From contig RPQH01000010.1 of the NCBI GenBank assembly GCA_003820375.1, positions 1,814-65,813 on the forward strand: a stretch of DNA of 64,000 nucleotides. Direction: 5' to 3'. The first letter of the stretch is position 1. Each line of letters opens with the position of its first letter. Below, piece by piece: positions 47,780 through 64,000 of this stretch. The DNA is from Ignavibacteriota bacterium (lineage in GTDB: Bacteria > Bacteroidota > Ignavibacteria > Tepidaquicellales > OLB5). A program made the position numbers and the translations under genes. The notes below the pieces were generated by a model that was given only the letters and a program-made list of their open reading frames with translations, was not told the DNA's origin and did not search any database.

Positions 47780-48106
47780 TCACCCACCGGCAAGTTGTGT
47801 GATACAATTTGCAGCAATATATTCCTTCAGATAAGGATTATCCATTATTCCGCTTTCAATCATAACGATAATATCAGATCCACTGCCTGTGTTTGGATTT
47901 ATATAATAGTATTCACCATAGTTATATGCAGTATTATTTGTCTTATTTAACACATCAAATACTTTAGTAAGAAAACTGCATGCAGCGATGGCTAAGCTAT
48001 TTGTATCTTCTCCCGTGAATGTAACAGATGACTGGATTGAAGGGCTATTAAGGCCATTTGCAAGTAAAACATTGCTTAAAAAATTTTCCAGAACGAATTC
48101 GTACAT
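47780..48106 (-). CDS. Hypothetical 108-aa protein ending in Gly-Gly
   Basis: RBS aaggag 9 nt before ATG; no recognised family. Confidence 0.65.
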   Translation of the reverse strand: MYEFVLENFLSNVLLANGLNSPSIQSSVTFTGEDTNSLAIAACSFLTKVFDVLNKTNNTAYNYGEYYYINPNTGSGSDIIVMIESGIMDNPYLKEYIAANCITQLAGG

Positions 48107-48165: not shown

Positions 48166-48426
48166 TTAATTAGAGTTTTGAAGCATTAATTCAATAAACT
48201 TGCACAATTGTATTTCCAGCGTTCTTCTTTTTTTTACAGGAACTTTGTCAAGAAAGCCGTGAACCTTTATCAGGTGTTCTTCAGGAGAATATTCAGGCTT
48301 ATTTTCATTCTGTCCGGGGTCGGATTTACAGGGACCGGGTTTTATTGAAGTATCTACAAAATATTTTTTAAAAACCTTATTTTTATCAATATTATCGAAA
48401 AAATATTTACATGAGAAATCTTTCAC
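48166..48426 (-). CDS. Hypothetical small protein
   Basis: 86-aa ORF with GTG start, divergent from 48616. Confidence 0.45.
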   Translation of the reverse strand: MKDFSCKYFFDNIDKNKVFKKYFVDTSIKPGPCKSDPGQNENKPEYSPEEHLIKVHGFLDKVPVKKRRTLEIQLCKFIELMLQNSN

Positions 48427-48615
48427 TTTTATTATCCCATTTTTTTGAATTTTGATAATACTCCAAAATAATACATCAAATGGCTTTCAGTAAAAGAAAT
48501 AATATTGCCAATTACATAAAAAACATAATATTAATGTGTTATATTATAATATAAAAAGCCGTTTTAAACGGTAATTTTAGCATATTCCCGAATTTCTTAA
48601 TACATAAATTTTATA

Positions 48616-50088
48616 ATGATACCTTCAAGATTTTTATATGTTATTAATTCTCTAAACAAAGAAGATTTTAAGCTTTTAGGGAAGTTTCTTTATTCTCCTA
48701 TGCATAACAGCAACAAAAATGTGATTAAGCTGTACCAGTATTTGAAGCAAATATATCCCGAATTTCAGAGTGAAAAGCTTAAAATGGAGCTTATGTATAA
48801 GAAAATATTTCCGGAGAAGATCTATAATGAAAAAATTATAAGGAATTTAATATATGAATTCTGCTTTAATGTTGAGAAATTCTTATCCTATATAAATTAT
48901 TCACATAGTATAATTGTATTCCAAAAACATCTCCTGCAGGAGTTAAGTGCCAGAAAACTCGACCGCCTTGTAAAAGAAAACCTTAGGAGTGCAGATGAGC
49001 TTTTATCGACACAAAAGATAAAAGACGAAGACTATTATAACATCAAAGTATTTTTAGAGGAGACAAGATTATTAAATGAAATGAAAGATGTTCCAATGGG
49101 AAAAAGCCTTGTCCTTTCAAACATCAGAAAAGAATATGTGAAAAGTGCATCTAACTATTTCTTACTTGTAATTTTGAGAACATATTTCGAAAAAAAGAAT
49201 TCCGATGAGCAAATAAAATCTGATGTTGAAATAGGATTTGCAGAATATCTTTTGAAATTTCTTGATGATAAAATTGAGAATTATAAGGACGAAACGGTAA
49301 TTTACCTGTTATACAAATATCTGAAGCTTAAAGAAGATACTGACACAAATGAATTTTACAACCTTAAGAATCTCACGATTTCAAATAAGGAAAAATTATC
49401 TGCTTCTTATTTTAAAGACTTCATTCTTGAGCTGTATAATTATTGTAAAACTCAGGAACGTAAAGGCAATAAGATATTCGGATACGAAAGTTTCGAACTC
49501 ATAAAATATATGCGTGATAATAACCTGCTTCTTGAAAACGACGGGATTATTCTTGAACATAATTATACCAATACTGTAGCTACTGCAATACGTTTAAAAG
49601 AAATTGACTGGGCTTTGGACTTCATTAAAAATTTCAAGGATAAATTACCCGAAAAGATAAGAGAAAATACATATTGCTATAATATGGCAGCGGTTTCTTA
49701 TATTACTTCTTCAATGTTGAATAATGATGAAAGACTGGTATACCTTGATAATGCACTGAATTTTTTAGCAAAAGTTAAAACATCAGATTTCTACTCAATG
49801 ACCAGGGTAAATAACCTGCAGCTGTTTATATTCTATGAAAAAAATGACTTTGATCCGATGTTTAATTTAATTGATGCATACAGGCACTTTCTTCACAGTA
49901 ATAAATTAATACCCGATGCGTTAAAGAACCGTTATTCATGCTTCATCAATTTTATGAGCCGCTTAATAAATATTAAGTCGGGTTCCAAAAATGCATCAAT
50001 TGAAAAACTCAAGCTTGATGTAATGAAAGCCGAAACCGAATATAAAAAATGGCTGATTTCACGGATTGAGGAAATAGAGAAAATTTAG
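48616..50088 (+). CDS. Uncharacterised ~490-aa helical protein (predicted N-terminal wHTH plus TPR-like repeats)
   Basis: SLNKEDFKLLGKFLYSPMHN...YKKIFPEKIYNEKIIRNL; paralog of 62598..64000. Confidence 0.8.
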   Translation: MIPSRFLYVINSLNKEDFKLLGKFLYSPMHNSNKNVIKLYQYLKQIYPEFQSEKLKMELMYKKIFPEKIYNEKIIRNLIYEFCFNVEKFLSYINYSHSIIVFQKHLLQELSARKLDRLVKENLRSADELLSTQKIKDEDYYNIKVFLEETRLLNEMKDVPMGKSLVLSNIRKEYVKSASNYFLLVILRTYFEKKNSDEQIKSDVEIGFAEYLLKFLDDKIENYKDETVIYLLYKYLKLKEDTDTNEFYNLKNLTISNKEKLSASYFKDFILELYNYCKTQERKGNKIFGYESFELIKYMRDNNLLLENDGIILEHNYTNTVATAIRLKEIDWALDFIKNFKDKLPEKIRENTYCYNMAAVSYITSSMLNNDERLVYLDNALNFLAKVKTSDFYSMTRVNNLQLFIFYEKNDFDPMFNLIDAYRHFLHSNKLIPDALKNRYSCFINFMSRLINIKSGSKNASIEKLKLDVMKAETEYKKWLISRIEEIEKI

Positions 50089-59182: not shown

Positions 59183-60469
59183 TTATTTATTTAAAATCAA
59201 TTTTATAACATTCATATAGCTTTCATTTTTATTTTCTGAAACTGCTATTAATTTACAAAAATAAATACCGCTTGTATTGTTAAAAGCATCCCATGTGATT
59301 GTGTATTTACCGGGAGTTTGATTTTTATCAACAAGAGATGCAATCTCCTGTCCCAATATATCATATATATTTAACTTCACTCTATTGGTAGTTGGTAGTT
59401 CGTAAGCGATTTGTGTAGATGAATTAAAAGGATTAGGAAAATTCTGACTTAATTTGAATTCTTGTGGAATGTTACCTGGGACTTTTCTTATGCCAACAAT
59501 TTCACTCATAGATCTTCTATAAATTCCAGTTCCACCTGTCCCTACAAAAATATTATTATTAGAAGTAACTATACCCCCAACTAAATTTATTAATCCATCA
59601 CTTTTGTTCAGCCAGTTTGATCCGTTATTAGTAGAAATATAAAAACCACCACCGCTTATTGCTCCACCCGCAAAAATAATGTCATTATAAGTCAATAATG
59701 AACTTATAGTGCCATAATTCAACGCAGACTGTGTCCAGTTAAAACCATTGTTTGTGGAAATATAAACTCCTCCACCTAATCCCATAAATATATAATTTCC
59801 ATGTACTGTAAAGGTTAGAGCTTGATAACTATTATATGACTGTAACCAGTTAACACCATAATCGATAGAAACGAAAGTTCCAGGATAGCCGCCTGCATAA
59901 ACATTATTTCCATTAATTGTTAAAGCATTATAATCCCCATAAGCTGGTGTTGGAAGTGAAGTCCTAATCCAATTTAGACCATAATCAGTAGATCTGTAAA
60001 CTCCGCCCGAATCATTGCTCCACCATTTCAGACCGGTAAAAACATAATTGCCGTTTGCTTCAATAGAATAATACCAATGGGTTCCGTTAGGTAATGGAAG
60101 CTGAAGCCAGTTTACTCCGTTATTTGTTGTTCGGTAAATATAGCCCATTGTGCCAGCATAAACATAATTAACACCACCAATGTTAGTCGCTGCAAACTCA
60201 AAAATATCACCACCGTTAACAGTTGTAAATATTGAAGTCCAACTGTTTCCATTATTTGTTGACAAGTATATTTCAGCATCCTGGTAAGTGAATCCGCGTG
60301 TGCCTGCAAATATGTAGTTTATTCCTCCGCTTGAATAAGAACAAAGAGCATTTACTGCAAGATTGTTTAATCCGTTATTTACCTGCACCCAATCAGCATA
60401 AATTAGATTTGTAATCATCATCTCAGCAGTTATCAGCAGTATTATTAGAAGTGTATTAATTTTCTTCAT
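59183..60469 (-). CDS. T9SS-sorted BNR-repeat beta-propeller protein
   Basis: Repeated STNNGxNW; QNFPNPFN C-terminal domain. Confidence 0.88.
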   Translation of the reverse strand: MKKINTLLIILLITAEMMITNLIYADWVQVNNGLNNLAVNALCSYSSGGINYIFAGTRGFTYQDAEIYLSTNNGNSWTSIFTTVNGGDIFEFAATNIGGVNYVYAGTMGYIYRTTNNGVNWLQLPLPNGTHWYYSIEANGNYVFTGLKWWSNDSGGVYRSTDYGLNWIRTSLPTPAYGDYNALTINGNNVYAGGYPGTFVSIDYGVNWLQSYNSYQALTFTVHGNYIFMGLGGGVYISTNNGFNWTQSALNYGTISSLLTYNDIIFAGGAISGGGFYISTNNGSNWLNKSDGLINLVGGIVTSNNNIFVGTGGTGIYRRSMSEIVGIRKVPGNIPQEFKLSQNFPNPFNSSTQIAYELPTTNRVKLNIYDILGQEIASLVDKNQTPGKYTITWDAFNNTSGIYFCKLIAVSENKNESYMNVIKLILNK

Positions 60470-60749: not shown

Positions 60750-61382
60750 TTACAAATCAAACTTTACACCGGTTGTTATCCTGATACCGTTATTTTTTGC
60801 TGTAAGAGTTGTGGCACTGCTAAGAGTATTTGAAAGTCCTAATCCGTAGCCAATGCTTGTGAACATTTCAGTACTGCTTCCTATGCGGAAATCCATTCCT
60901 CCGCCAAAGTAGAGACCGATATCCGTTGATTCAAAAAGCTGGCTTACATCCACATCCTGTGAAGGCTGCTGATTTCCAAGATTAATCTCTTCATTTGCTG
61001 ATACTCTTAAGCTGAGTGTCGGGCCTGCTTCCAGATATGGCTTTACGCTTGATACCGGAAATGTTACTTTAAGCAGTGCGGGGACTTCAATGTAGTTTAC
61101 CTTAAAATTGTTTGGTAATCCGCCATTGTTTGTTACTGAGAAACCTTTCATAATGTATCTTACACCAGGTTTTATGGATAATATGGGGGATACTTTTATT
61201 TCTGCAAACGTGCCAAACATCATACCTGTTCTTGAACTGGATTGAATGTCAGGTGTGAAACTTGAATTAGAGAGATTCATACCGCCTTCAATTCCCATCT
61301 TAACTGACTGTGAAAATATCTGTGTTGTAAATATTGCTATTAAAGCAACGATGATTAAAGATGTTTTTGTTGAGTTTTTCAT
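60750..61382 (-). CDS. PorT/OmpA-like outer-membrane beta-barrel
   Basis: GIEGGMNLS, YIEVPALLK, PYLEAGP, C-terminal GVKFDL. Confidence 0.85.
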   Translation of the reverse strand: MKNSTKTSLIIVALIAIFTTQIFSQSVKMGIEGGMNLSNSSFTPDIQSSSRTGMMFGTFAEIKVSPILSIKPGVRYIMKGFSVTNNGGLPNNFKVNYIEVPALLKVTFPVSSVKPYLEAGPTLSLRVSANEEINLGNQQPSQDVDVSQLFESTDIGLYFGGGMDFRIGSSTEMFTSIGYGLGLSNTLSSATTLTAKNNGIRITTGVKFDL

Positions 61383-61458: not shown

Positions 61459-61863
61459 TTATTGTACTGTGTAATCTGTTGTAACATTATAACCTGAATT
61501 AGTGCCGCTCTGTGTATTGCCAGAAAAATCGAATTTCCATTGCTGTTCCTGCTGAACACCTGTATATTCATTTATGATATATGTGGTGTCTTTGCTGTAA
61601 ATGTAATTTGGGTTTGTGTAGCTCATAGTATCGGCAAACTGCTCTGCAGGAAATTTGCTTACTATCCTTGAAATTTTTGTATCTGAAGAGGGTTTGAAAA
61701 GGAACTGAACTCCTCCGTTTATCCCTTGCTGCTGCGATATCTGAAATGATACCTGCATATTCTGGTCCGGTCCCATCAAGCTGTCATTTTTCTTGCATCC
61801 TGTTATTGATGTGAGCAAAATTGCAAGCACGACCAAACCTTTCATTAAAATTTTTGTTTTCAT
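61459..61863 (-). CDS. Hypothetical lipoprotein
   Basis: ITGC lipobox; RBS aagga. Confidence 0.8.
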   Translation of the reverse strand: MKTKILMKGLVVLAILLTSITGCKKNDSLMGPDQNMQVSFQISQQQGINGGVQFLFKPSSDTKISRIVSKFPAEQFADTMSYTNPNYIYSKDTTYIINEYTGVQQEQQWKFDFSGNTQSGTNSGYNVTTDYTVQ

Positions 61864-61902
61864 TATTTTTTTCCTTTAGTTTTTATTATTTATTAATATT
61901 TA

Positions 61903-62241
61903 TTATTTATTTGCTTTAAATTCCCGGCTGTTTATGCCCGCATAATTGTTTATTACTGTGACGCTTTCTTTAGTAAATGTATATTCAGAGTTATTATAAG
62001 CAGTCAGGTCATCTGTCAGCCCCGAAGAATACCTGTTAATCACATGCCATGTTCTATTATCGTCTTTTGATTTGTAAATAAACTCTGATGTTCCGACAAA
62101 GTTTTCGCTTTCAGGAATTTCAAGTACAGCAGGTTGGTTTACATCTATATCTTTTTTTGCGTTTAAAGAAAGTCCTGTTAGAACTACCGCAAGTAAAATT
62201 GACGATAGTACAAAAAGTTTTAAATTTTTTAAGATTTTCAT
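61903..62241 (-). CDS. Exported hypothetical protein, shorter paralog of 61459..61863
   Basis: Signal peptide from ATG 62241 (RBS aagga); EYTFTKESVTVINNYAGI resembles NYIYSKDTTYIINEYTGV. Confidence 0.7.
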   Translation of the reverse strand: MKILKNLKLFVLSSILLAVVLTGLSLNAKKDIDVNQPAVLEIPESENFVGTSEFIYKSKDDNRTWHVINRYSSGLTDDLTAYNNSEYTFTKESVTVINNYAGINSREFKANK

Positions 62242-62597
62242 TTTATTATTCCTTTTATTTATTTTTTTAATATTTCTTTGTTTTTTCTTATTGTTCTTGT
62301 CATTTAATCCTAAAAGCATGTTTTTCATAGTTCTTACACTTATAAAATCGTTTATCAGCTGTTGAGCAAGGCATAATACGCTGTGCATAGGAAGTTTAGA
62401 ACTATATTTATTTTTATTTTTGCTCATTTGTTTGTGTTAATTTCACTGACAGGACAAATATAATTTCCGGATAGAGGGGTGTGCAAAGAATGTTTTTAGC
62501 GAAACTAATCAGGTAAGAAATCCGGATGCAATTAAAAAATGTTGATTTTTAGCTGAATTTAAAGAATTTTGGCTTTTTAAAACTAATCAATATTGTC

Positions 62598-64000
62598 GTG
62601 AATAATTCAAAACTCATCAATGTTCTCAGAACTTTTTCGAAAAATGAAATGAAGGAGTTCGAGAAATTTATTTCTTCACCGTTTTTTAACGGGGGCAGAA
62701 ATTATATACCTTTCCTCAACCAGCTTAAAAAGTTCTACCCGGTATTTGATGACGAAAAATTGACACCGGAATATGTTTATTCCAAATTATACCCGGGCAA
62801 AGAGTTTAATAAACAAATTATTTGGAATCTGACCTCTTCTCTTCTAAACCTTGTTGAAGAATATTTAATGTATGTCTCAATAAAGAAAAATAAATTTATC
62901 AGGGAGCATCAGATAGCAGAAGAATTTTGGGATAGAAAGCTCACGTCATACTATTACAAAAAGCTTAATGACCTGGAAGCAACTCTGGATAAGATGGGGC
63001 TTGAAGACAACTATTTCAGATATAAAACACAATTGGAAAAAGGAAAAATATCATATTATTTTCTTGAAGATGCACAGCATTTACTTTTTGAGCATATAGT
63101 AAAGGAAGGTGAATATACAATTTTAGCTTTCATGAAGGATATTTCTGATGTTATCGGAAGTCTGCATACAAGCTATACTGTGTATAATACCCGGTTTGAA
63201 GACAATTTGTCTTACACATTTATAGAAAATCTACAAATGGAAAAGATTATTGAATATTCATATGAGCATAATTTTACATATGCTCCAATTCTTGAAATGT
63301 ATTACAGAATGATTATGCTGGTTATAGATGAGGAAAGAACGGAACATTTTTACAGACTGAAAGAGTTGTTTGAACAGAATTTCAATTTATTTCCGTATGC
63401 AGAAAAATACACCTGGATAACAGAGCTTTCCAATTACTGCATTGTTAAATTAAACAGAGGAGATAATGAATTCAGGAAAATTTGTTTTGAATTAGATAAA
63501 TTCCGCTTAAGAGAAGGGCTGCTTTTCCAGGGGAAATATATGCCTAAATTATTATTTGTACGAATAGTAAGTAACGCTACTTTTTTATATGAAACGGAAT
63601 GGGCAAAAAAATATATTGAAGAATACATTCACTTGCTGAAACCTGCATATCAAAAACCTACTTTGGCTTTAAGTTATGCAACTTTGTATTTTAAGCTTAA
63701 GGATTATGATAAAGTAATGGATAATTTAAGCAAAGTGAAATTTATGGATTTAATTGATAAAGTGTATGTAAAATCATTTTATCTCAAAACATATTACGAG
63801 CTAAACGAGATTGAAACTTTATTAAATTATATTGATTCAACGAAGCATTTTTTTAATAAGAACATTTCCATCGGGAGTCAATTAAAAGAAAATTACATCA
63901 GGTTTACAGGTTATCTGTATAAACTGGTTATGGCAAAAGAAAATAATGATGAGTTTGAAATTGATAAGCTTTTGAAAACCGTAAGAAATGACTTAGCTAT
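62598..64000 (+). CDS. Uncharacterised helical protein, paralog of 48616..50088 (3'-partial, absent from the ORF track)
   Basis: GTG start, MNNSKLINVLRTFSKNEMKEFEKFISSPFFN..., frame open to the window end by manual translation. Confidence 0.88.
   Translation, partial: MNNSKLINVLRTFSKNEMKEFEKFISSPFFNGGRNYIPFLNQLKKFYPVFDDEKLTPEYVYSKLYPGKEFNKQIIWNLTSSLLNLVEEYLMYVSIKKNKFIREHQIAEEFWDRKLTSYYYKKLNDLEATLDKMGLEDNYFRYKTQLEKGKISYYFLEDAQHLLFEHIVKEGEYTILAFMKDISDVIGSLHTSYTVYNTRFEDNLSYTFIENLQMEKIIEYSYEHNFTYAPILEMYYRMIMLVIDEERTEHFYRLKELFEQNFNLFPYAEKYTWITELSNYCIVKLNRGDNEFRKICFELDKFRLREGLLFQGKYMPKLLFVRIVSNATFLYETEWAKKYIEEYIHLLKPAYQKPTLALSYATLYFKLKDYDKVMDNLSKVKFMDLIDKVYVKSFYLKTYYELNEIETLLNYIDSTKHFFNKNISIGSQLKENYIRFTGYLYKLVMAKENNDEFEIDKLLKTVRNDLA

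Follow-up and report, generated by a model that had tools for sequence, protein, structure and literature searches.

Genes at the end of the window

The DNA analyzed here is a 64,000-nucleotide (nt) stretch of contig RPQH01000010.1 from an Ignavibacteriota bacterium (G000:C10:1814-65813, hereafter the window), and the gene in question is the one that runs across its right end. This open reading frame (ORF), located at 62598..64000 on the plus strand, starts with GTG and encodes 467 amino acids (aa) within the window; in the contig it ends at the position equivalent to 64061, and the complete protein has 487 aa. We found that the 62598 ORF is a member of a large, so far unnamed family expanded in Ignavibacteria-like Bacteroidota, and its predicted structure, upstream DNA and gene arrangement point, on balance, to a regulator of the genes that it faces.

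A first-pass annotation had described this ORF, which was missing from the gene list, as a winged helix-turn-helix (HTH)/tetratricopeptide repeat (TPR)-like protein paralogous from end to end with the product of 48616..50088 (plus strand, 490 aa), and the paralogy was confirmed. BLASTP of the 62598 protein against the 48616 protein gave a single end-to-end alignment of 481 columns with 26% identity (E = 1e-29), the frame is open over at least 467 codons, and the quoted motifs (KF.SP..N, L.NYC, WA..[FY]I and [FY]YE.N...ID...HF) are present both in the pairwise alignment and in that of the 18 paralogs described below. The 48616 protein belongs to a clade with those of loci L002 and L003, not to the clade of 62598, and its orthologs were not found among 40 relatives, where the closest matches were 33-35% identical.

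On the minus strand, the 62598 gene is faced by a small basic ORF of 61 codons (62245..62427), followed by a trio consisting of an exported protein of about 113 aa with a hydrophobic, signal-like N-terminus as judged by eye (61903..62244), a lipoprotein-like protein of 134 aa (61459..61863) and an outer-membrane (OM) beta-barrel of 210 aa (60750..61382; Pfam OMP_b-brl_2, E = 7.5e-20). In the window, no stop separates the small ORF from the next gene, and the two are read together as a 174-aa ORF (61903-62427); in the orthologous loci the same region is split into a basic ORF of 53-78 codons, a stop, a short gap and an exported protein of about 110 aa. The start of the exported protein at about 62244 agrees with the 62241 given earlier. 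The small basic ORF is conserved in the orthologous loci and in the clade of L009, and the lipoprotein and the beta-barrel are syntenic in the orthologous loci. When the 16 closest-relative loci (44-56% identity) were inspected, nine kept a lipoprotein homolog divergently upstream; eight of these nine also kept the exported-protein homolog, and all nine kept the start of the OM beta-barrel gene.

Size and distribution of the family

The source genome (G000) has 4.77 Mb in 199 contigs with 34.8% G+C, and a nearly closed relative of 3.7 Mb (G010) was used beside it. In G000 there were 21 matches to the paralog, of which 18 are full-length genes (478-506 aa) and the rest contig-end pieces or one short C-terminal fragment. 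The 18 paralogs are 20-37% identical to the 62598 protein in the alignment of all 18. Just after paralog L003, an 83-aa ORF (L020, G000:C7:16291-16542) matches only the last 70 or so family residues with 35% identity, and looks like the leftover C-terminal fragment of a further family copy.

When 1.84 billion cluster representatives were searched with a profile of the 18 paralogs, 12,294 matched at E<=1e-3 and 7,124 still did so at E<=1e-30; the best 150 of the 12,294 were all full-length matches, in proteins about 465-507 aa long. With word seeds, 113 relatives were recovered; wherever a source gave them a name it was 'hypothetical protein', except for two called 'TPR repeat protein', and the named organisms among them were metagenome-assembled genomes of Ignavibacteria or Chlorobi. 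The nearest clusters in a protein atlas came from Ignavibacteriota and Bacteroidota and had no Pfam family in common. The family was present in 30 of 31 related genomes, several of them with at least 51 matches, and G010 had 49 matches at E<=1e-20, whereas in a phylum-wide sample only 20 of 401 genomes contained it.

Searches for an existing name or a known context were negative. Pfam and NCBIfam gave only sub-threshold noise for both paralogs in the window, none of the 18 members matched a PADLOC anti-phage defence model at E<=0.01, and the family was not found in plasmid and phage collections by tblastn. Fused forms of 887-2530 aa were not found at E<=1e-10, which is weak evidence, and a full-text literature search returned no paper describing the family.

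N-terminal domain

The 62598 protein was modeled by AlphaFold2 with the 18 paralogs as the alignment, giving a mean predicted local distance difference test score (pLDDT) of 90.6 and a predicted template modeling score of 0.79. The model is all-helical and consists of a small head and a long body. The head (residues 1-97, 62598..62888, plus strand) is a basic, HTH-like domain with helices at residues 5-10, 15-26, 36-44, 57-64 and 72-97 and no strands. When residues 1-115 were folded alone, the pLDDT was 91.2, a further helix was seen at 99-112, and DSSP assigned no strand.

Comparison of this N-terminal model with the PDB by VIA-align yielded sigma factors (region 4) or DNA-binding domains of response regulators or other transcription factors, judged by title, in 34 of the 50 matches listed. 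The best was sigma-H (Z 6.8, root-mean-square deviation (rmsd) 2.5 A, 71 residues aligned, 21% identity), followed by SigR region 4 and CnrH (both 5.9), SigE region 4 on -35 DNA and EsrB (both 5.5), CadC and ArlR (both 5.4), DesR (5.3), and KdpE and the SARP AfsR (both 5.0); in a second look CadC (Z 5.4) and ArlR (4.5) were on top. The aligned range, about 13-99, covers the last four helices, and the putative HTH pair is formed by helix 57-64 and helix 72-97. The segment that the first-pass annotation had singled out as HTH-like (residues 55-87) is this same helix-loop-helix pair, which superposes on the HTH of sigma region 4 and on OmpR-type DNA-binding domains. A profile of the N-terminal domain gave chance-level matches only among PDB sequences. 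With modest confidence, we regard residues 1-97 as an HTH-like fold that has no wing, no OmpR-type sheet and no profile-level HTH family.

The charge and conservation of the domain were then considered. Over the 18 paralogs, residues 1-71 have an average net charge of +4.8, and the charge is positive in 16 of them. Mean column entropy over nine orthologs sharing the AAACTAAWCA boxes described below was 0.49 for residues 1-97 vs 1.05 for residues 98-487, and over the 18 paralogs 1.97 vs 2.37. Positions that are invariant among the orthologs yet variable among the paralogs were concentrated in the N-terminal domain (14 of 97, vs 16 of 390 in the body; Fisher p 6e-4). These specificity-type positions include N2, K5, N8, R11 and T12, which all look to the same side of helix 1, as well as two residues of the predicted recognition helix, Q73 and N77. 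The earlier proposal that the predicted recognition helices differ between paralogs holds well here, the region being variable in paralogs and conserved in orthologs.

TPR-type body

From residue 98 onward (62889..64000, plus strand, cut by the window end) the model forms a TPR-type solenoid whose fold matches RapJ, RapI and NprR. Foldseek with the whole model against the PDB gave nothing at E<=1e-3, and only generic TPR proteins above that. In an exhaustive VIA-align comparison, 189 PDB chains reached Z>=8, and the top five were RapI (Z 15.8), the phi105 Rap (15.2), NprR (14.2), the pLS20 Rap (13.8) and RapH (13.6); MalT domain III (12.7), AimR (11.2) and PlcR (10.6) came lower. The matches to Rap, NprR, MalT, AimR and PlcR span model residues of about 100-487 only. 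In a second look at 952 Foldseek candidates, the first 13 matches were all Rap or NprR (Z 16.4-13.4), and the first generic TPR protein scored 13.3; RapJ had Z 16.4 (288 aligned, rmsd 5.4), the phi3T Rap 16.2, RapI 16.0, NprR 14.5 and AimR 12.4. Because helical repeats reach Z of about 13-14 in VIA-align by arrangement alone, we read the body as nearest to TPR domains of the Rap/NprR type, with homology unproven.

The helical-hairpin solenoid superposes on solved TPR domains, and the TPR fold is apparent at the structure level only. The 62598 protein had no match to a Pfam TPR model. In the 18 paralogs, ARM_TT21_5th (three members), ARM_TT21 (two) and ANAPC3 (two) recurred, and TPR_2, TPR_19 and TPR_1 were each found in one paralog at E>=0.12. 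The profile of the 18 paralogs matched a consensus TPR at E 1.9e-4 among PDB sequences, and no Rap, NprR, PlcR, Rgg, PrgX or AimR chain at E<=10 among all of them.

These results also bear on the type of protein that the first-pass annotation had proposed, namely an HTH of the OmpR/SARP type followed by a TPR/BTAD-like body. An HTH-like head and a TPR-type body are both seen in the AlphaFold models, so this part of the proposal stands. SARPs combine a DNA-binding head with a helical-repeat domain, AfsR is like the 62598 protein in this order of domains and, on the regulator reading, in being a pathway-specific activator encoded next to its targets, and OmpR-type domains including that of AfsR are among the weak N-terminal matches (Z 5.0-5.4). 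However, neither a Trans_reg_C nor a BTAD Pfam model matched, in 18 members at E<=5 or in 19 N-terminal segments at E<=10, and neither model has a beta-strand or sheet, hence neither a wing nor the N-terminal sheet. Moreover, the fold matches are weak throughout (Z 5-6.8) with sigma region 4 at the top of them, and the body is nearer to Rap/NprR, no BTAD structure being among the 50 matches listed for each search. Membership of the OmpR/SARP family, and a BTAD domain at the profile level, were not supported, and we disfavor an activator that belongs to the SARP/OmpR family as a very improbable reading.

Conserved elements upstream of the 62598 gene

The last 200 nt before the regulator start were aligned over nine loci whose proteins are 45-56% identical, and five conserved blocks were found. 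Nearest to the divergent operon is a candidate -7 box on the minus strand, TATATTTG (62455..62462; CAAA(G/T)ATA on the plus strand), about 28 nt upstream of the ATG of the small ORF; it fits TAnnTTTG, which we take to be the -7 box of Bacteroidota promoters. A candidate -33 element, TTTG on the minus strand (62484..62487), lies 21 nt upstream of the -7 box within a conserved GCAAA (62483-62487). The remaining three blocks are on the plus strand. Box 1, AAACTAATCA (62502..62511, consensus AAACTAA(A/T)CA), is about 15-24 nt beyond the putative -33 element; a middle element, TGTTGATTTTTAG (62540..62552), is conserved over the nine loci as a block written TGTTGATTTT; and box 2, again AAACTAATCA (62580..62589, consensus ACTAA(A/T)CA), ends 9 nt before the GTG. 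Box 2 is a direct repeat of box 1, 78 nt apart, and both copies are kept in the nine orthologous loci. An Rfam search over 61800-62700 gave no match above threshold.

Similar pairs of a different sequence were found at other members. The nearest in-genome paralog, L009, has a like layout with ACTAACC at both positions (-92 and -15), and the sister paralogs L014 and L017 have TAAATTG in common at -112/-111 and -20. ACTAAWCA itself is not enriched genome-wide (198 matches on both strands).

The repeats were evaluated over the family by scoring, in the 160 nt upstream of each gene, the best ungapped direct repeat with at most one mismatch and a spacing of 60-110 nt, weighted by information. We compared 46 family regions (18 from G000 and 28 from G010, with tandem downstream copies left out) with 1674 upstream regions of at least 160 nt of other genes in G000. 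The median score was 13.2 for the family and 10.9 for the background (Mann-Whitney p 5e-7), and the difference was retained against 637 divergent-only regions (p 9e-7) and in each genome separately (p 0.0024 and 2.8e-5); 15 of the 46 family regions exceeded the 90th percentile of the background. The repeated words vary by locus, for example TGTTGCnAAAAATG, AGATTTGTTAAAT, AGTTGCTTAT, TTTTGTGAGG and AAATGTTATAAA, and many contain TTGT or TGTT. Among single words, the most enriched hexamer was CAAAGA (17 of 46 vs 6%, p 6e-10), and AAATGT (17 of 46 vs 9%) and TTGTG (17 of 46 vs 11%) were enriched as well, while [AT]TGTT had no single positional peak upstream of family genes. As CAAAGA is the complement of a TTTG-type box, its enrichment fits a nearby divergent promoter.

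At the second family member of the window, a near-perfect palindrome, GCCGTTTTAAACGGT, was noticed at about 48540-48560, some 60 nt 5' of the 48616 start codon.

Divergent arrangement and partner genes

Both family members of the window had been described as divergent from genes for small or exported proteins, and minus-strand ORFs do lie upstream of each. Those opposite 48616 encode proteins of 86 aa (48166..48426) and 108 aa (47780..48106), neither of which has a match to a known family in Pfam. When the paralogs of the source genome and its relative were tabulated, as the first-pass annotation had recommended, divergence was clearly enriched. The upstream neighbor was divergent for 16 of the 18 full-length copies in G000, the exceptions being a tandem pair and L014, and for 24 of the 30 copies examined in G010, where, of six exceptions, two are tandem pairs of family genes and three depend on doubtful short ORFs. 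The background in G000 is 898 of 3690 (24%; binomial p 1e-8 for G000 and 2e-10 for G010), and the two genomes combined give 40 divergent copies out of 48. Head-to-tail tandem family pairs are found at G000:C57:18338-21377 and, in G010, at L054/L057 and L061/L073; in such pairs the divergent partner faces the upstream copy only.

Certain types of partner are seen in both genera. Some are FN3-like and about 110 aa long, others measure 70-97 aa, begin with a hydrophobic segment and carry a WWxxVY-like motif, and others again are secreted proteins of about 400 aa of the BNR/type IX secretion system (T9SS) kind; the small basic 'GYRLKxSTH' ORF and a small type that is presumably DUF1059-like recur as well. 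On a quick maximum-likelihood tree of 48 proteins, four labelled partner types need three changes, which is the minimum, whereas shuffled labels need 10.1 on average and none of 200 shuffles was as low as three. Because the partner types follow the regulator clade in this way, regulator and partner have been inherited together. The FN3-like proteins (GEIDLTWEP), which have no obvious signal segment, are the conserved divergent partner of one clade (L004 and L007 in G000; L052, L058, L066 and L076 in G010). In another clade the conserved divergent partner is the 70-97-aa type, hydrophobic at the N-terminus and bearing a G(I/V)WWxxVY-like motif (L016, L017 and L021 in G000; L053 in G010), at a gap of only 110-240 nt to the regulator.

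As TPR proteins often act as chaperones, many of the neighbors are secreted or T9SS proteins, and a type III secretion chaperone complex is among the body matches (Z 9.9), the family might instead supply dedicated chaperones or assembly factors for neighboring secreted proteins, with no role in transcription. Against this, the genes are divergent and not co-transcribed in 40 of 48 cases, the partners are very diverse in fold and size, and neither the boxes repeated in the shared promoter region nor the basic N-terminal domain conserved among orthologs would be explained. We consider a chaperone function quite improbable.

The small basic ORF facing the 62598 gene was considered as a family-wide partner and rejected, since its hidden Markov model (HMM) found only the L009 and L010 loci in G000; in G010 the ORF is present at 4 of 30 loci. 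Its product matched nothing in Pfam or among PDB sequences, and a suspected likeness to ribbon-helix-helix proteins, which found no support in either, is not claimed. Further along the same strand, the exported protein (61903-62244) and the lipoprotein (61459-61863) are weakly similar to each other (tblastn cross-matches of 22-31% identity at the ortholog loci) and may stem from a tandem duplication. Downstream of the trio, 59183-60469 (minus strand) encodes a secreted BNR/Sortilin-like protein of 428 aa with a T9SS sorting domain (Por_Secre_tail, E 4.7e-8), and genes with a Por_Secre_tail-type sorting domain were also seen near several ortholog loci.

Discussion

An HTH-like head, a TPR body, divergent targets and a duplicated box together make up the anatomy expected of self-controlling, locus-specific one-component regulators. 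On balance we lean toward the view that these proteins are a new family of such cytoplasmic transcription regulators, in which DNA binding, the direction of regulation and the ligand are all things that we infer. In the mechanism that we propose, the basic four-helix HTH-like head (residues of about 1-97) would recognize a short locus-specific box that is found twice, in direct orientation, in the DNA upstream of the regulator itself. The first of these stands just before the regulator start codon, suggesting autoregulation, and the other, 60-110 nt further up, would be next to the promoter of the divergent target. The C-terminal Rap/NprR-like solenoid could be a signal-receiving or oligomerizing module that switches DNA binding. 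A separation of 78-100 nt between the two boxes would hint at DNA looping or at a pair of dimers. At the 62598 locus, the likely targets would be the small basic ORF together with the exported protein, the lipoprotein and the OM beta-barrel (62427 down to 60750). Judged from the DNA, the position of box 1 beyond the putative -33 element would be typical of activators, and box 2 would lie between any regulator promoter and the coding region, where binding could repress.

Several points weigh against this view. The fold matches of the N-terminal domain are weak, the top Z of 6.8 being under the tool's bar of 8, Foldseek gave nothing below E=2 for this model against the PDB, and 19 N-terminal segments had no HTH, sigma or Trans_reg_C Pfam match even at E<=10. 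The putative HTH helices are separated by a 7-residue loop, longer than the classical turn, and helix 72-97 is uncharged on average among the paralogs. In the body, Rap/NprR lead over generic TPR proteins by only about 1-3 Z units at rmsd 5-6 A, and TPR solenoids cross-match easily. A crude longest-ORF caller underlies the orientation counts, some of whose neighbors are short unverified ORFs, 8 of 48 copies are not divergent, and the relatedness of the paralogs and of the two genomes means that the p-values overstate independence. The background of the repeat test was taken from G000 only, though 28 of the 46 family regions are from G010, and the tendency of the proximal repeat copy to end no more than 40 nt from the start codon is modest (34 of 46 regions vs 57% of the background, p 0.013). 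Finally, the boxes may be bound by another factor, for example the product of the small basic ORF.

This last point leads to the main rival explanation, in which the TPR protein does not bind DNA and works by contacts with proteins; its sigma-4-like head would bind a small partner protein, RNA polymerase or else a sigma factor or anti-sigma factor, and something else would read the boxes. Rap phosphatase and anti-activator proteins of Bacillus, phi3T, phi105 and pLS20 are the best structural match to residues of about 125-487 of the 62598 protein, and Rap binds proteins, as the titles of the RapH-Spo0F and RapF-ComA entries indicate. The N-terminal part of Rap is a bundle of three helices, and its targets are proteins rather than DNA. 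The likeness has its limits: the alignment runs from Rap residues of about 7-14 onward to model residues 125-138 onward, so that the first 125 or so residues of the model have no counterpart, and there is no sequence similarity. The match of the N-terminal domain to sigma region 4 at least as well as to classical regulators, the conserved small basic ORF between regulator and targets in the 62598 clade, and the absence of any match to a Pfam HTH model likewise agree with action by protein contacts. Sigma-70 and ECF region 4 indeed give the best N-terminal matches, with four helices in equal order, whereas no sigma Pfam model matched, the likeness is confined to a region-4-like four-helix domain (Z<=6.8) without region 2, and the domain is N-terminal, is followed by a TPR solenoid and has an inter-helix loop of 7 residues. 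On the other hand, the small basic ORF is confined to a single clade (two G000 loci and 4 of 30 G010 loci) and has no detectable DNA-binding family, whereas repeated boxes and a divergent layout are found family-wide, and the N-terminal domain is where the specificity-type positions cluster, in keeping with a locus-specific target of that domain. We judge action by protein contacts to be unlikely, though with a chance too large to neglect.

The likeness of the body to Rap/NprR raises a further explanation, namely that the family consists of RRNPP-like HTH-TPR receptors binding peptides from adjacent small secreted proteins, as a self-reporting or quorum circuit. Several of the matching Rap/NprR entries are peptide complexes, and the nearest protein atlas cluster named by a receptor family was AimR (score 0.75), which we treat as a lead only. 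NprR, PlcR and AimR, which are one-component peptide sensors from Firmicutes and the phages of these, have heads with an XRE-type HTH. Like them, the 62598 protein has a small helical head of DNA-binding type followed by a TPR solenoid of about 350 residues within a total length of 250-500 aa, and NprR matches the body with Z 14.5 over 297 aligned residues (rmsd 6.5). Unlike them, it belongs to another phylum, lies in a mostly divergent layout and shows no detectable sequence similarity to any solved RRNPP receptor; its head is not of the XRE type and resembles sigma region 4, OmpR or LuxR; and the neighbors are mostly whole secreted proteins, not propeptides.

Published descriptions allow this comparison to be made item by item. 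The RRNPP family is described in Firmicutes or Gram-positive bacteria in the abstracts of PMC9765709, PMC10075063 and PMC12998947. PMC10075063 presents RRNPP_detector with five receptor criteria and an analysis of complete Firmicutes genomes only; the criteria include a length of 250-500 aa, a TPR HMM match at E<1e-5 with coverage >65%, and an adjacent propeptide gene of 10-100 aa with a Sec signal or of the SHP/PrgQ type. On these terms, the 62598 protein has a fitting length (487 aa; 478-506 aa in the paralogs) and no match to the TPR models of Pfam. Sequence homology to a known receptor subfamily, also among the criteria, was not found in PDB sequences. As for a propeptide gene, a 61-codon ORF adjoins 62598, and other paralogs have neighbors of 70-97 aa, while many neighbors are large. 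Judged by eye, the small basic ORF at 62598 has no hydrophobic N-terminus or other signal-like segment, whereas L009, L016, L017, L021 and L053 adjoin ORFs of 70-100 aa that have one. According to the abstract of PMC7425212, Paenibacillus has more than 25 pairs, and the present family is alike in that a genome contains numerous paralogs, every one of them associated with the gene beside it. Against peptide sensing, many of the partners are large (400-960 aa), and the small ones, with their conserved WWxxVY, resemble folded domains rather than propeptides. An RRNPP-like receptor function is something we hold to be distinctly unlikely, and we would give an equally small chance to the broader proposal that Ignavibacteria-like Bacteroidota have an RRNPP-like system of much greater size, independent or anciently shared. 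In it, dozens of cytoplasmic HTH-TPR receptors per genome, each head to head with a locus for secreted proteins, would each read their own box and sense a peptide or fragment of the product exported by the neighbor.

MalT domain III offers a comparison outside these groups, as the TPR-like sensor of a transcription activator of the STAND type (Z 12.7, 283 aligned, rmsd 7.1). The LuxR-type HTH of MalT is C-terminal. In contrast to MalT, the 62598 protein has no NTPase domain, and the MalT score is within the generic TPR range.

If the members of the family are regulators, they would probably be among the largest transcription-factor families of these genomes. The 49 copies of G010, at about 1.45 kb each, amount to roughly 2% of its 3.7 Mb, yet they are annotated only as 'hypothetical protein'. 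Since a genome contains dozens of paralogs, all with duplicated boxes of their own, and public data add thousands of sequences, the family would be a natural experiment in DNA-recognition specificity. It would also tie gene control to the secreted and T9SS proteins of a lineage that has been little studied and is for the most part uncultured. Given the apparent structural kinship of its body to Rap/NprR, peptide-type sensing might also occur outside Firmicutes, a possibility that can be tested; should the RRNPP-like explanation prove true, no one-component sensing network of the peptide type would have been described before beyond Firmicutes and their mobile elements.

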